Shown here in pieces: positions 7,740 to 39,951 of a DNA stretch of 64,000 bases; position 1 is the first letter of the stretch; each line of letters begins with the position of its first letter. The position numbers and the translations under genes are program-made. The stretch lies in sequence record PZ242158.1. One strand, given 5' to 3'. Source of the DNA: a phage. The notes below the pieces were generated by a model. The model worked only from the letters and a program-made list of their open reading frames with translations. It was not told the DNA's origin and made no database searches.

Positions 7740-7994
7740 ATGAAAATTACTTTGAAGCCAGAATGCGTTGCAAATGACCGAGCTTTTAAAGATTGCACAG
7801 TCGGTGCAATTTATGAAGCAGAGTTTTGTGAGAACCCTCTGGTAAAAGCCCTTCTGGAAGAAGGGGCCCCTTTATCACAAGAAGAGATTGATGAGCTGGA
7901 AAACTCAGCACAGTGCCTTACCTTTAAAGATGACGAAGGAGACTCTGTCTGGTGCACTGTTAATGAAGTAGTTTTTGTAAAACCTGAACATTAA
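7740..7994 (+). CDS. hypothetical protein (paralog pair with 8058..8330)
   Basis: AAGGAG RBS; shares KP-x-F-DCT and KDD-GD-C-T motifs with the next ORF. Confidence 0.55.
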   Translation: MKITLKPECVANDRAFKDCTVGAIYEAEFCENPLVKALLEEGAPLSQEEIDELENSAQCLTFKDDEGDSVWCTVNEVVFVKPEH

Positions 7995-7997
7995 TAC

Positions 7998-8026
7998 TTG
8001 ACAACAGTGATGGGGCCTAATATAAT
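7998..8026 (+). promoter_or_regulatory. sigma70-like promoter
   Basis: TTGACA, 17-bp spacer, TATAAT; upstream of the 8058 start. Confidence 0.5.
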
Positions 8027-8057
8027 GGCCCTATCAAAACGAAAGGGGACCACAGCA

Positions 8058-8330
8058 ATGACCAAACAATATCAACGAATTAAAGCCAAGGTTAAGCCAG
8101 ACTATCTGGAAAAGGACTCTGCTTTTCGGGACTGCACAGCTGACAAAGTTTACACAGGGGCCGTCCTGCTGAACGATGAATTTGAAGTATATGTTCTGGG
8201 TAAAGAGGCCACTATTAAGGACGACCAAGGAGATTATGTTTGCTGCACCACACGTGAGCTAGAAATCTTAGAATACTTCGGTGAAATCTTCACCTCTCTT
8301 GATGATTACTTAGACGACGAGGAAGCGTGA
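8058..8330 (+). CDS. hypothetical protein (paralog of 7740..7994)
   Basis: Start moved to internal Met after AAAGGGGA RBS and downstream of the promoter; paralogous motifs. Confidence 0.5.
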   Translation: MTKQYQRIKAKVKPDYLEKDSAFRDCTADKVYTGAVLLNDEFEVYVLGKEATIKDDQGDYVCCTTRELEILEYFGEIFTSLDDYLDDEEA

Positions 8331-26259: not shown

Positions 26260-26859
26260 GTCTGCTCTTCCTCCCTACCATAAACGGCCCTACCTGGCAA
26301 GTGGAATAATTGACGAGCCATCAATCCCACACACTGTACAAATATACATGTAAAATAACTATTGCATAACCTTTCATTGTGTGGTAGCGGTGCTATTTTT
26401 ACCCGTTTTCCTTCCAAAATTGCACGTAATGCAGCTATTGCACAAAATTTAACCTGATGCGCATCTTCAATATCTTGTCAACAACTAAAAATCTTTATAA
26501 GTCATACACTTACACAAACCAAAAAGCGTGTTCTACGTGAAAAATCGAGTATAACTATAGCCGACAGATCTCAGAATTTACGTACGCTCACCATTCTATA
26601 GCCTGCTAAGTATTTATTCCGACCATAGAATAACAGAATAGTCAATACCTGCATAAAATAATTATTCGTTTAAATTGCATAACATAAATCAGCTCAGGTG
26701 TCAACATTTTTCGTAAACAGTCTGAAATTGTCACGGCAAGTTATCATAATCAGAGAAATCTTTAGTCGTCTAATGTTTACTGTACGTTACTATACTAACT
26801 GGAATCATTAGATGACTAATAGAAAGATAAGAAATAATTAACAATACAATTATTTTATC

Positions 26860-27045
26860 TGTAACAATAAGGCAACTATGCAAACGAATGGCATGGCGCG
26901 ACGGAGTCGCGACATAATATAAAAGCAGTAACCATCACCCCCGTGATAGTTTGTCTGCAATCTATTAATCAGATCATAGTTGCCTTGTATTTAGTTAATC
27001 ATGACATAACAAGCAAGGCAACTATAGATCTTCTAATAGTTGCCC
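26860..27045. repeat. iteron-like cluster (AGGCAACTAT / ATAGTTGCC in both orientations)
   Basis: At least four copies within ~180 bp plus duplicated ATGCAAACGAATGGCATGGC and palindrome CGCGACGGAGTCGCG in an AT-rich ORF-poor region. Confidence 0.5.
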
Positions 27046-27284
27046 TGCTTTTATATTATGTCATATATTATTAACTTGTTAATTGTTAGTCAGTCAAATC
27101 AACAGCGTTATCATTTCAGTCTTTATTGTTGTTGATCGTTATTGTTATCATGCAAACGAATGGCATGGCTTATCATCTCTGTATAAACAGTTTATGCGTG
27201 AACAGTGAGGCATGCAATAGTAACAATTGTTATTGTGTCATCATGTCAAGGGTAAAGTGTCATAGTATGTCAGACATGTTTTTC

Positions 27285-28277
27285 CCCTCTTTGTCAAGTG
27301 CTGCATGAAAAAATTTACAAGCTGGTATGGTAGCATTTTTGCGGCCTTGTTTACATTCAGGAGTGTATGTATAATCCTTGTTGTGTGGGCGTTTATACGT
27401 CTGGACGGTCAGAAGTCTGCAGGTTAATATCTAATCTATTGGCTGCTAACTATATCCCACACAAATGATAAGAAATATAATTGTTATATGCGTAAACTGT
27501 AACTCATGTTATCAATCCCTGTATGTATCGCCAGTGGTGCGCATAATGGGTATTATGTTAAATTGCCCGTAATGATAACAGTTCTCACAATGATAGGTAT
27601 TCTCATTCATCCACACAAAATAGGTTGCAAATGTTGTGCCACTGTGTGAACGGCCTGGCCTATTAATTTCTCTCACTGCCTCGATATTTGAGAATTGTTA
27701 TAAGAATGAGAAGTATCCATGTTTATATTACATCTACTTGGTTCAGAACCAAAATGCGCGAAAGCGTTTCACGATAACTAGCGACCACGGTCTGTTCCCT
27801 GGCGGCCATACGGCTTCTACTGAACGCAGCAGAGGGCGATAATCCCCTCTTTGTCAAGTGCTGCATGAAAAAATTTACAAGCTGGTATGGTAGCATTTTT
27901 GCGGCCTTGTTTACATTCAGGAGTGTATGTATAATCCTTGTTGTGTGGGCGTTTATACGTCTGGACGGTCAGAAGTCTGCAGGTTAATATCTAATCTATT
28001 GGCTGCTAACTATATCCCACACAAATGATAAGAAATATAATTGTTATATGCGTAAACTGTAACTCATGTTATCAATCCCTGTATGTATCGCCAGTGGTGC
28101 GCATAATGGGTATTATGTTAAATTGCCCGTAATGATAACAGTTCTCACAATGATAGGTATTCTCATTCATCCACACAAAATAGGTTGCAAATGTTGTGCC
28201 ACTGTGTGAACGGCCTGGCCTATTAATTTCTCTCACTGCCTCGATATTTGAGAATTGTTATAAGAATGAGAAGTATT
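27285..28277. repeat. tandem direct repeat: two near-identical ~430-bp copies (about 27285-27717 and 27845-28277) separated by ~128 bp
   Basis: Long stretches read identically at a ~560-bp offset; each copy contains promoter-like TTGTTT-17-TATAAT. Confidence 0.7.
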
Positions 28278-28410
28278 CCCATTCCGTCCGCCTGGCAGCG
28301 CTCCTGTAGGTCCTGCAAGGACTCTAGCTTTCAGCTAGACCCTTCGGGCCTCCCTACAGGTCAGGTCAAAATCGTGGTAGAATTGGGCCTATTCAGATAT
28401 TTCTGGCTGA

Positions 28411-28952
28411 CTCTTCAGGTCTGTGTGGGAAAAGCCAACCTCTCCGGCGGGGCAGGGGGAGGTCAATTAAAAAATTTACGTGGTGTATGAAGCGCTCTTC
28501 AGGTAAGGCAGGTATTATGGGATGAAACCCTCTTCAGGCAATGATATTTGTGGGTGTGATATTTGCTGGAAAGCCAGATATGACGGGACTCCCGGCGGGG
28601 CAGGGGTAGTACAGACAGGGAAAATATGAGAATGTAGTTGGGGAAATTGATCAGACAGGTAGAGTATGGAATATGTTACAAGTATGTTAAATATGGAGGT
28701 TGAATATCTGTAGGATTTGTGTGTAAAATCAAAGACTTAAGGGGTGTTGTGATATTTTCTATAAATAATTCAAGTTTAATAGGTGATATTTGTCTCTATC
28801 CGCTTTGTGTGGTAAACAGATTCAGATGAGATTGGTTTACAAGTGTATACATAATATACAAATTAAAGATACAAGAAACCCCCCATCCCCCTTCGGCTAC
28901 CATTCACCTTTTCCTCTGACTGGTACTTAAACACTTATTCAGACTCTTCAGG
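28411..28952. repeat. cluster of CTCTTCAGG boxes (4 copies; a 5th near 29594) and duplicated CCGGCGGGGCAGGGG
   Basis: 9-mer recurs at ~28411, 28495, 28530, 28944 within non-coding DNA; also long inverted repeat CCTGTAGG...CCTACAGG at ~28300-28360. Confidence 0.5.
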
Positions 28953-29304
28953 TTATCACCCATATATCATATGGCAGTGACTGGTGTCCTCCGGCCCCTC
29001 TTTCGTCACCCGTCCGCTTCGCCATGCTAATGCCATAGCCAATGGTTCGGTTGTTCACCCTGTTCACTCAGGTGTATCTCCATACCCCTTCAAACCGAAG
29101 AGAACAGAAAACCCGAATTACTCGGTAAAAGAAAAGAGAAGAACTTAATTTTATCAGGATAGGCAAGAATGTCAAGGCATGACTGCTCACTAAACAAGCA
29201 AACAGTCATGTGTGGGAGGTAAGTGATTGTGGTGGTGGGAAATTTAGTTGAAAGATGTGTTATAGGTGCGCTTCCAGCACTTTAGCCGGGCAGCTAATTG
29301 TGTG

Positions 29305-33307: not shown

Positions 33308-33703
33308 TTACTGAAACAGTGCGGATAAATTACCTTCTGGTGGGAACTTATCTGCCAAAAACGGTGTTAGCACAGTAGCCTTCTGAAGATCTGGGGTCCA
33401 CTCGTTGTTCAGAACATCCCAGTAGTACGCAATGTTGCTGTGTGGGTGCCGCATTACGAACTTTTTCCCTTCGTAGTCATCTGAAACCTCTACAGAAGAA
33501 ATAACAACAGAATCTTCAAGGGTTTCTTCATAGAAAGATCCGCCTTCAAATTTCCAACGAGATGCAAGAGCCCCTGCCTTGAACGCTGCAGATAACGGAC
33601 TGTCGGCAAGAACATACATTTCTTGCACTCTGTCGCTGCGATCTTTGCTTCTTACGTTGTATACAGTATCTGAGCTATACTCAACACGGTATAGGCTTAC
33701 CAT
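33308..33703 (-). CDS. hypothetical protein, paralog family 2 (with 35510..35908)
   Basis: Shares F-V-HP-S...YW...WTP block with 35510..35908. Confidence 0.5.
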   Translation of the reverse strand: MVSLYRVEYSSDTVYNVRSKDRSDRVQEMYVLADSPLSAAFKAGALASRWKFEGGSFYEETLEDSVVISSVEVSDDYEGKKFVMRHPHSNIAYYWDVLNNEWTPDLQKATVLTPFLADKFPPEGNLSALFQ

Positions 33704-34394: not shown

Positions 34395-34664
34395 TTATTC
34401 CTCTACAATCTCATACACATCCGGAGTTACAATCAACTCTTCTCCGTTACCCGGTGCAACAAACACCACCATGCCTTCAGGTGTGTGCTTTTTAGCCATC
34501 TCGATAACATCTTCTCGCAGAGCTGGCTCCATCAGATCAAAACCTTCACCCAGGGCATCACGAACCACCTTCATATAGTCAACTGGTTGTGCTTCGACAA
34601 TCATACCTTCAACCAGTCCACAGTTTTTGTCTGCCAGCTCAGTTTTGAATAATTTAATTTTCAT
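34395..34664 (-). CDS. small acidic protein
   Basis: MKIKLF N-terminus; ends EIVEE. Confidence 0.5.
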   Translation of the reverse strand: MKIKLFKTELADKNCGLVEGMIVEAQPVDYMKVVRDALGEGFDLMEPALREDVIEMAKKHTPEGMVVFVAPGNGEELIVTPDVYEIVEE

Positions 34665-34690: not shown

Positions 34691-34792
34691 TTAATAGCCG
34701 TAACCTAACACATTAACTACAACTGCGATTGCAAACATAATTTCAAAGCATGCAATCTCTACATTTGGGACTAATTTCTTGATCACACCCAT
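34691..34792 (-). CDS. small hydrophobic peptide (33 aa)
   Basis: GAGGTG RBS just downstream of HPF stop; MGVIKKLVPNVEIACFEIMFAIAVVVNVLGYGY. Confidence 0.35.
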   Translation of the reverse strand: MGVIKKLVPNVEIACFEIMFAIAVVVNVLGYGY

Positions 34793-34801
34793 TGTAGCAC
34801 C

Positions 34802-35119
34802 TCATTCTCTAAAGTCAATCTTTACTTTGCCTTTCCCCTTACCTTTCTTTCCACCGCATTTAGCCAGTTGACGTGCTGCAACATCTACCATACGGTCAGT
34901 TGCCTCGTAAGCATCACTGCCTTTAGCTTTGGCAATAACTTCTTTTCCAGAATTGTCAAAAATGAACGCCATAACTTCCTGGTGATCATTTTCAACTTTT
35001 ACACTCACACGTGCATAGTTGGCAGAGGGATGCAAACGCTCCAGCTTAGACATTTTGTGGGAAATGAAAGACACCATACCTTCAGTGATTTCTACGTTGC
35101 CAGTGATTTCAATTTGCAT
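34802..35119 (-). CDS. hpf: ribosome hibernation promoting factor homolog (HPF/RaiA family)
   Basis: MQIEITGNVEITE...KLERL...VSVKVE...GKEVIAKAKGSDAYEATDRMVDVAARQLAK aligns along its length with E. coli HPF/RaiA; Lys/Gly-rich C-terminal extension. Confidence 0.8.
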   Translation of the reverse strand: MQIEITGNVEITEGMVSFISHKMSKLERLHPSANYARVSVKVENDHQEVMAFIFDNSGKEVIAKAKGSDAYEATDRMVDVAARQLAKCGGKKGKGKGKVKIDFRE

Positions 35120-35157: not shown

Positions 35158-35201
35158 TTGAAAACAATGATACTAAATCTGAAGCGTTGTGTCAACAGTT
35201 T

Positions 35202-35509: not shown

Positions 35510-35908
35510 TCAGTTTAGCTTTTCTTCAACAACCCCATAACTTGGGGCAGAGTCAAGAGCTTTCTGGTTTAAAAGTGGCGTAGCAGAATCTGCAAACGGT
35601 GTCCAAGTTTTTGTTCTGGCATTCCAGTAATGCTTCACTCTGGAATCTGGATGCACTATAACAAAAACTTTTTCACTTGTCAACACATTAATTTCTTCTA
35701 CACCCTTGCTGATAATTTCTCCGTCATAGCCCCCAGTCTGGTATCCTTCGTACCAGGTTCTTGCATAGGCATAGCCAGCCTGCCAGCATGCAGCCTCCTC
35801 CGAGGTGGAGACTACGTAGAAGTCTTTCTCAAATTCTGGAATACGCCCTTGCTTTACGCTCCAAGCCCCGCGAATTTTCATTGTAACTTTAAACAGTTTA
35901 TTTTTCAC
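35510..35908 (-). CDS. hypothetical protein, paralog family 2 (with 33308..33703)
   Basis: Shares FVIVHPDSRVKHYWNARTKTWTP block with 33308..33703. Confidence 0.5.
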   Translation of the reverse strand: MKNKLFKVTMKIRGAWSVKQGRIPEFEKDFYVVSTSEEAACWQAGYAYARTWYEGYQTGGYDGEIISKGVEEINVLTSEKVFVIVHPDSRVKHYWNARTKTWTPFADSATPLLNQKALDSAPSYGVVEEKLN

Positions 35909-35920
35909 AACGGTTACCCA

Positions 35921-36175
35921 TCACAGCTCTACAATATCTGCATCTGACCCTACCCCAAAGGCATAGTAGGACTCTTCCCCGAAATAATATTCAGGTGCAC
36001 CAGCGGTGATCAGGTCTGATCCCAAGATAAACACCACGTTGTGGCCTACATAACTGTGATGTTGCCGCACAGGATCATCCCACGGCAACCCTTCAAAGTA
36101 TACCGCAGGAACGACCTTTCCATTCAGGAAGGATTGTCCCAAGTAGACGTTAGAATCAAGAATTTTAACCTTCAT
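35921..36175 (-). CDS. small acidic protein, paralog family 1
   Basis: MKVKILDSNVYLGQ...GSDLITAGAPE matches family motif MKVKxLD...KGxDLxAAGA. Confidence 0.5.
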   Translation of the reverse strand: MKVKILDSNVYLGQSFLNGKVVPAVYFEGLPWDDPVRQHHSYVGHNVVFILGSDLITAGAPEYYFGEESYYAFGVGSDADIVEL

Positions 36176-36392
36176 GATCGTCCTCCACTACCTCTACATC
36201 CTCACCTAGGGCAAAGTTATAGGTCCACTGACTGTCAAAGCATTCCTGAGATGCACCAGCGGCAATAAGATCTGCTCCTTTTATTTTTAAAAGGTCAGGG
36301 TAATCTTCGTTAGGGACAGCAGTAAACACTTTTCCTACTAAAGGCTCCTGACCAATATAGAAGCTTGAATCTAAAACTTTAACTTTCATCAA
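36165..36392 (-). CDS. small acidic protein, paralog family 1
   Basis: MMKVKVLDSSFYIGQ...KGADLIAAGASQE. Confidence 0.5.
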   Translation of the reverse strand: MMKVKVLDSSFYIGQEPLVGKVFTAVPNEDYPDLLKIKGADLIAAGASQECFDSQWTYNFALGEDVEVVEDDHEG

Positions 36393-39187: not shown

Positions 39188-39721
39188 CTACAAATGGTCG
39201 CTGAGGGTGTCAAGAAAATTATCCCGTTCTTTCTCAGAGTTTTCATGTGTGTAGCTGAAAAACATATCGAGAATAACCTTATTGATATATTCCAGCTCCT
39301 CTGTGTTCAGATGCTTAGCAGGATCTACAATGACATCCCAAATATCATACAGACCACACTCATGATACCCATAACGCCACTCAATTGTCAAGCTGAGCGG
39401 CAAATCTTTACCTTCACAAACAACCTTCCATCTACATATGTTGGTATCTGGTCGTACCTGTGCACGGTACACCTGCACAAAATCCAATTTGAATTTGAGG
39501 TACTCGTCATACAATTTAAGCACAAAGCTCTCGATTTGTGGAGACACTTTTGCAGCAAACTGTGCGTATTTGTACTTGCACTGAATGATCTTTCTGCGTT
39601 TTGCAGTTAAATTTTTTGCCGCCAGTTGTTCTTCAGTGTATCTCCACCTACGATCAACAAACGCAACAGGGTCTTTGTCCCCATAGAGGTCTTCCCAGTT
39701 AATCAGAAGCATACCTGTCAC
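39188..39721 (-). CDS. hypothetical protein
   Basis: 177-aa ORF; no domain. Confidence 0.55.
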   Translation of the reverse strand: MTGMLLINWEDLYGDKDPVAFVDRRWRYTEEQLAAKNLTAKRRKIIQCKYKYAQFAAKVSPQIESFVLKLYDEYLKFKLDFVQVYRAQVRPDTNICRWKVVCEGKDLPLSLTIEWRYGYHECGLYDIWDVIVDPAKHLNTEELEYINKVILDMFFSYTHENSEKERDNFLDTLSDHL

Positions 39722-39951
39722 TCCTCCACAACTTCAAGGCCTTTACCGCCTCGCTCTGGCAGATTACTTAAAGATAGGTAATACATATAATCAGGAGAGA
39801 TCCTGCCAGACTCTGCACCTGCAGCTAGTAAATCCTTCCCTTTAACCAGGACAACATTCTCGTTTGCAGATAGCCGTTTTGCTTCCACAATTTTACCAAC
39901 ACAGTCAACCAAGGAAGGGTACCCTAAATCTGTAAGAAATTTAACTTTCAT
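39718..39951 (-). CDS. small acidic protein, paralog family 1
   Basis: MKVKFLTDLGYP...VKGKDLLAAGAESG. Confidence 0.5.
   Translation of the reverse strand: MKVKFLTDLGYPSLVDCVGKIVEAKRLSANENVVLVKGKDLLAAGAESGRISPDYMYYLSLSNLPERGGKGLEVVEE

Follow-up and report, generated by a model that had tools for sequence, protein, structure and literature searches.

A ribosome hibernation factor homologue encoded by rV5-like coliphages: family membership, predicted fold and possible action on host ribosomes

Hibernation factors decide ribosome survival under starvation, and ribosome-associated proteins of phages give one of the few direct approaches to viral manipulation of host translation. In the 64,000-nt stretch of phage DNA analysed here (the window; sequence record PZ242158.1), the initial annotation described a 105-aa product that aligns along its length with bacterial HPF/RaiA and is encoded among small acidic proteins. 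The strand had not been given; the ORF is on the minus strand. The locus raises the questions of whether this protein is a genuine member of the HPF/YfiA family and what it might do on host ribosomes. The features considered are the following:

35167..35195, minus strand: sigma-70-type promoter of hpf, TTGACA-17-TATCAT, matching 11 of 12 consensus positions and corresponding to rV5 P144
35138..35158, minus strand: stem-loop in the hpf leader, AAGAGGG-TTTGGTT-CCCTCTT (RNAfold -9.9 kcal/mol), near the predicted 5' end of the leader
34802..35119, minus strand: hpf-like CDS with ATG start and TGA stop, 105 aa, orthologue of rV5 gp139/ORF144
34856..35119, minus strand: folded HPF core, residues 1–88, strand-helix-three strands-helix in the AlphaFold2 model
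34805..34855, minus strand: Lys/Gly-rich C-terminal tail, residues 89–105 (GGKKGKGKGKVKIDFRE), net charge +5, predicted disordered
34791..34818, minus strand: second sigma-70-like promoter, TTGACT-16-TG-n-TACAAT, matching 10 of 12 consensus positions, with an extended -10 TG
34691..34792, minus strand: hydrophobic micro-ORF of 33 aa, equivalent of rV5 gp140, matching phrog_15151

The hpf start codon is preceded at 7 nt by the Shine-Dalgarno sequence AAGGA, and the full product is MQIEITGNVEITEGMVSFISHKMSKLERLHPSANYARVSVKVENDHQEVMAFIFDNSGKEVIAKAKGSDAYEATDRMVDVAARQLAKCGGKKGKGKGKVKIDFRE. All of the motifs on which the alignment to HPF/RaiA had been based are present in this translation, together with the Lys/Gly-rich GGKKGKGKGKVK tail. 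The protein matched Pfam PF02482 (Ribosomal_S30AE) with an E value of 1.8e-12 and 48.3 bits (gathering score 23.7), covering profile positions 1–83 of 88, and S30AE was its sole significant Pfam domain. It also scored 45.9 bits against TIGR00741 (HPF/YfiA family; cut-off 40.9), and a sequence search of the PDB aligned E. coli HPF chains with residues 1–89 (E ~5e-12). The initial annotation had staked its claim of homology on an HPF-family HMM match, and such a match, significant and extending along the protein, was found. Among phage proteins, the product belongs to phrog_12469 (E 2e-70). At the equivalog level it reached 55.8 bits against short HPF (NCBIfam NF007780/PRK10470; cut-off 125) and 17.6 bits against RaiA/YfiA (NF007654/PRK10324; cut-off 158). 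It is a divergent protein of the short-HPF type. The RefSeq name 'RaiA' was rejected at this level (17.6 bits versus 158) and is best read as generic. With a pI of 9.0, the protein is a basic outlier among neighbouring small products that are mostly acidic (pI 4.1–4.8), which agrees with the acidic surroundings first described.

A model of the protein was built with AlphaFold2 from an alignment of 22 sequences, replacing a poor single-sequence model (pLDDT 52). The mean pLDDT was 82.7, and the elements were E2-7, H13-29, E33-43, E46-55, E60-67 and H70-93. By ten-residue blocks, pLDDT was 87–94 over residues 1–80 and 80 for residues 81–90. A Foldseek search of the PDB with this model gave 37 matches at E ≤ 0.001, every one of them HPF, YfiA or pY. 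The top match was V. cholerae HPF (4hei_A; E 1.5e-9, TM 0.82/0.93, rmsd 1.0 Å), and the E. coli HPF of a hibernating ribosome (6h4n_x) gave TM 0.82/0.90 and an rmsd of 1.1 Å. Structure prediction, which had been proposed as a check on the family assignment, thus points the same way, and the phage protein is predicted to have the HPF fold.

The closest well-studied cellular protein is E. coli short HPF (YhbH; PDB 2RQL, 4V8H, 6H4N), which shares 43% identity over 88 residues, a like fold, and the same start and domain boundaries. For comparison of the residues that contact the ribosome, we used a list drawn from the HPFs of E. coli, E. hormaechei and P. aeruginosa (bioRxiv 10.1101/2025.10.07.680626 and 10.1101/382572), in E. 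coli numbering. In these HPFs, K80, R83, K87 and K91 make up the basic track of helix 2. The phage protein keeps R83, which contacts m4Cm1402 (bioRxiv 10.1101/2025.10.07.680626, 10.1101/382572), as well as K87, K91, D75 and, as its K25, the equivalent of K26; position 62 stays hydrophobic. In contrast, three ribosome-contacting residues of cellular HPFs are altered in both phage lineages (rV5-like phages and a sister lineage, see below), namely K80 (to V/T), R33 (to S/T) and T53 (to F/R); of these, R33 is an E-site tRNA contact and T53 a contact of m2G966 (bioRxiv 10.1101/2025.10.07.680626, 10.1101/382572). The near-invariant columns of the family (T12, K22, A63, D69, Y71 and D75) are all retained. 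In addition, the two phage lineages share departures from the family consensus at EGMV, RLHP, AKAKG and DAYEATD.

The other differences from E. coli HPF concern charge and the C-terminus. The E. coli protein has a pI of 6.5, is about 95 aa long and ends at His95, which stacks on G693 (bioRxiv 10.1101/382572 or 10.1101/2025.10.07.680626), whereas the phage protein of 105 aa has no terminal His and ends instead in the Lys/Gly tail, which runs 10 residues beyond the length of E. coli HPF. This tail has a pI of 10.3, as against 5.9 for the core, and its end is predicted to be disordered (pLDDT < 50 for residues 91–105). Its basic part is kept in all relatives, and the extreme end varies (FRE, FGE, FWD, FE). 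The 3' end of hpf contains the purine run GGTAAGGGGAAAGGCAAAG, where single-base indels frameshift the tail in the phages APECc02 (L009) and Murica (L010), shortening their HPFs to 101 and 99 aa, respectively; slippage in nature may have produced these variants, or they may be sequencing errors in a homopolymer. At the other end of the protein, some genomes have GNNV in place of GNV near the N-terminus, giving 106 aa.

E. coli RaiA (YfiA, protein Y) is more distant (25% identity) and shares family and fold with the phage protein. Both extend C-terminally past HPF, and both are expected on 70S monomers, with no promotion of dimers. The RaiA tail has been reported to run towards the RMF site, to block RMF and to prevent dimers (one of the bioRxiv contact papers above); it ends acidic, whereas the phage tail is polybasic, and the two sequences are unrelated. 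In long HPF of Gram-positive bacteria, a linker leads to a C-terminal dimerisation domain of some 60 aa, in place of which the phage protein has only the disordered tail. S30AE/HPF-fold proteins of about 110 aa are also encoded by the jumbo phages Cronobacter GAP32 (K4F6Q6) and Escherichia PBECO4 (L7TII8). These share about 22% identity with the window protein, were not recovered with it by tblastn at E 1e-3, and belong to a different PHROG (phrog_8990, which the window protein matches at E 1.5e-6, compared with 2e-70 for its own phrog_12469), so that the sequences point to a probably independent acquisition. The anti-CBASS sponge Acb4 (PDB 9E4W) was considered as a relative and rejected: it ranked 47th or lower in the Foldseek search, behind the 37 HPF/YfiA structures, and a PDB sequence search gave no Acb4 match at E ≤ 10.

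When the core of hpf (codons 1–88) was compared with nine other Vequintavirus copies, dN/dS was 0.00–0.13, dS reaching 0.54 at most. In the comparison with the sister lineage, whose HPF (P0004, 103 aa) is 64% identical and lies in a colinear locus, synonymous sites were saturated and dN was 0.28. The hpf core is under strong purifying selection. By profile, predicted fold and purifying selection, 34802..35119 encodes a genuine phage member of the HPF/YfiA family, and since the protein is conserved and strongly constrained, it clearly does something.

The sister-lineage copies sit on phage-size contigs (44–137 kb). Their loci L002 to L005 represent a divergent rV5-like lineage, missing from the phage collection searched, which is colinear with the window, with about one third alignable at 69–88% DNA identity, and whose HPF carries another basic tail. 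One copy lies inside an E. coli isolate assembly (GCA_012894635.1, contig AATLQU010000010.1, 136,793 bp). As to the more remote origin of the gene, an exhaustive HMMER scan of 1.84 billion representative proteins gave 22 matches at E ≤ 1e-3 with no intermediate sequences, and the best cellular match was an enterobacterial HPF with 45% identity. Since the nearest cellular HPFs are only 43–45% identical and intermediates are absent, recent capture from the host was rejected.

The gene is not new. The 2-kb neighbourhood of hpf is 98–99.8% identical to more than 100 genomes of Vequintavirus (rV5-like) coliphages, with phage EdH4 as the best DNA match (99.8%), and every one of the 119 related phage records contained the protein by tblastn, 118 with an identity of ≥ 90%. 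In rV5 itself, the gene is gp139/ORF144 (YP_002003641, ABI79209; P0001), 99% identical with the single difference R104G. The rV5 record annotates the sigma-70 promoter P144 just upstream, and locus, promoter and downstream 33-aa ORF are all as in the window; no difference of substance was seen, and the window is from an isolate closely related to rV5. The protein appears in the records as 'sigma 54 modulation factor', 'ribosome hibernation promoting factor' or 'RaiA'. Phage HPFs were described in 2019 in rV5, FV3, JES-2013, FFH2 and typing-phage-14 (Mizuno et al., PMC6375957; Nat Commun 10:752), and a 2020 paper again states that hpf is encoded by rV5 phages. The novelty implied by the initial annotation is therefore lost, and the gene is already known from annotated rV5-like genomes and from the 2019 and 2020 papers; the HPF call, made from sequence only, was nonetheless accurate. 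The gene is conserved across a large group of coliphages that includes therapeutic candidates. Among the related records, three in GenBank wrongly name hpf 'ATP-dependent protease La type I', and 18 labelled 'Campylobacter phage' are 93–99% identical to these coliphages, which suggests that the host is mislabelled or that they contain coliphage contamination.

Mizuno et al. also placed the rV5 gene in pBAD24 and induced it with arabinose in E. coli NM522 (PMC6375957). The protein was present in the crude extract, but no peptides were found in the 70S/100S fractions, and 100S formation was not discernibly affected; unlike E. coli HPF, which together with RMF drives 100S formation, the phage protein did not promote 100S when expressed. 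The cells were harvested at late exponential phase and their ribosomes sedimented through a cushion with 500 mM NH4Cl; dissociation by salt and the phase of growth were both offered by the authors as explanations that might account for the missing ribosome signal. Because of this wash and this harvest, we regard the published negative as non-decisive and compatible with salt-labile binding. The expressing cells could be grown both overnight and to OD 1, and their 70S profiles were normal (PMC6375957); growth to this density argues against strong translational silencing. Our literature search found no functional work on the phage protein later than Mizuno et al. and no infection-time expression, binding or knockout data for it.

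The initial annotation placed hpf in the middle of an operon. The micro-ORF does follow the gene at 34691..34792 on the minus strand, as first described, and the array is co-directional; however, hpf has a promoter of its own directly upstream, at 35195..35167. The -35 context of this promoter, AAACTGTTGACAC, is conserved in all 11 loci compared, the sister-lineage locus L002 included, so that hpf heads its own host-polymerase transcription unit inside the array. Since this promoter is of the sigma-70 type, the protein is probably made early. The significance of the leader stem-loop is uncertain. Its sequence is partly conserved among relatives and absent in L002, and we gave it little weight because of this inconsistent conservation.

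The second sigma-70-like promoter overlaps the stop codon of hpf as well as the micro-ORF start codon (ATG). All Vequintavirus loci conserve it, with a -10 of TATAAT in L007, and in L002, which lacks the micro-ORF, TTTACA-17-TACACT is found at the equivalent position. This promoter probably drives the downstream gene of 89 aa (34395..34664); if it is active, its transcripts would begin 3' of the micro-ORF ATG and serve this gene. The micro-ORF is intact in all 10 Vequintavirus loci, and its Shine-Dalgarno sequence GAGG overlaps the hpf stop codon. In the comparison with L007, its dS was 0.28, as against 0.54 for hpf, with few substitutions in the micro-ORF; the low value hints at added constraint at the nucleotide level. 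That it encodes a protein is plausible. The 89-aa gene, called 'sigma 54 modulation factor' in several records, was examined as a second HPF and rejected; the name is an annotation slip, since the product has no Pfam match and falls in a PHROG without known function.

The explanation that we favour, with moderate confidence, is that the protein is the Vequintavirus orthologue of short HPF and sits in the decoding channel of the 30S subunit on idle host ribosomes, in a salt-labile, RMF-independent manner. Host RNA polymerase would transcribe hpf from its own sigma-70 promoter, and the HPF core would then, like cellular HPF/RaiA, enter the decoding channel of vacant host ribosomes, with the retained helix-2 residues contacting 16S rRNA. 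The disordered polybasic tail may reach along the mRNA path in the direction of the platform, as the RaiA tail does on its way to the RMF site. Acting alone, the phage HPF would hold 70S monomers inactive but intact, reversibly and salt-sensitively, in a mode more like that of RaiA than that of a 100S promoter. Searches of the window and of 50,697 phage records gave no RMF homologue; 121 ORFs of the window matched 35 Pfam families, and RMF was not among the first 25 of these. Monomers are expected because there is no phage RMF and the protein lacks the dimerisation domain of long HPF, and the unchanged 100S formation on expression agrees with a factor that lacks dimer-promoting activity. We infer ribosome binding, the path of the tail and a benefit to the phage, which may lie in protecting or buffering idle ribosomes during takeover or in starved hosts. 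The lack of recovery with 70S/100S, the changes at K80, R33 and T53 and the score below the HPF equivalog cut-off are points against this explanation.

Mizuno et al. (PMC6375957) proposed a role against hibernation, in which the protein would act as a decoy that competes weakly and reversibly for the 30S site of host HPF/RaiA while its longer basic tail blocks RMF, so that the ribosomes of starved or stationary hosts are kept out of stable 100S and remain free for phage mRNAs. We consider this role unlikely. It draws on the 10 extra residues of the polybasic tail, on the reported effects of the RaiA tail on RMF and dimers and on the lack of an RMF homologue in the phage collection, and the loss of K80 together with salt-labile association fits weaker binding; yet the small 100S peak was not visibly lowered on expression (at a growth phase when RMF is scarce), the phage tail has no sequence similarity to that of RaiA, and tail-truncated variants occur in two otherwise intact phages. 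We would put a low probability on a dominant-negative or 'wake-up' factor that takes the HPF/RaiA site and whose tail excludes RMF, ribosome-targeting nucleases or toxins. If this were true, the phage would override or exploit hibernation, for example by countering dormancy-type antiphage responses of starved gut E. coli, and the protein would be the first viral hibernation antagonist or mimic with a defined mechanism.

The initial annotation had offered silencing or protection of host ribosomes as a possible role. It is improbable that the protein is made early to block the decoding site and silence host protein synthesis. Cellular HPF/RaiA do occlude the positions of mRNA and of A- and P-site tRNA (bioRxiv 10.1101/382572 or 10.1101/2025.10.07.680626), and the gene has an early-type promoter, but induced E. 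coli grew to OD 1 with normal 70S, so the protein is not strongly toxic; moreover, the phage needs the same ribosomes, no feature sparing phage mRNAs was found, and it is on vacant, non-translating ribosomes that factors of this family have been described. That the fold has been exapted for a non-ribosomal job, binding another RNA or a nucleotide signal like the dsRBD-like phage sponge Acb4, strikes us as very improbable. The absence of the protein from salt-washed ribosomes and the EGMV, RLHP, AKAKG and DAYEATD departures common to both lineages are in keeping with such a change, and Acb4, reported to be structurally similar to V. cholerae HPF, has chains among the distant Foldseek matches; its E value of ~0.03 and TM of ~0.5 compare poorly, however, with the TM of 0.8–0.9 and rmsd of 1.0 Å for HPF structures, and the rRNA-contacting R83, K87, K91 and D75 are kept under purifying selection. 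An isolated host-like gene among phage ORFans might also be a functionless passenger captured from the host, but this is hardly credible: the dN/dS values effectively refute it, none of the 119 records has lost the gene, which a synonymously saturated sister lineage also keeps, and an identity of 43–45% at most to any cellular HPF among the 1.84 billion representatives is not that of a recent capture.

The small proteins around hpf include paralogues. Members of phrog_7379 are encoded at 33308-33703 and 35510-35908, on either side of hpf (BLASTP E 3e-9), and phrog_5009 forms tandem paralogues (E 9e-14); further paralogues lie at 35921-36175, 36165-36392 and 39718-39951, and at 7740-7994 and 7998-8330. 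A Pfam scan of the ten nearest neighbours of hpf gave no domain, an Rfam scan of the whole window no known RNA family, and ARAGORN no tRNAs in the window.

Outside the hpf region, the window contains a perfect direct repeat of 434 bp on the plus strand (27283-27716 and 27843-28276), with the copies 126 bp apart. The sequence is present as a single copy in 113 of 120 related phage records, with a best external identity of 97%, and the repeat resembles the product of a recent duplication, or else an artefact of assembly. It lies in an ORF-poor stretch of about 3 kb (~26400-29300), the first part of which is AT-rich (GC 33–38%) and which also holds several inverted repeats. Since this stretch separates the rightward block of genes (to ~26.2 kb) from the leftward block (from ~29.3 kb), it may be a region of divergent control or an origin.
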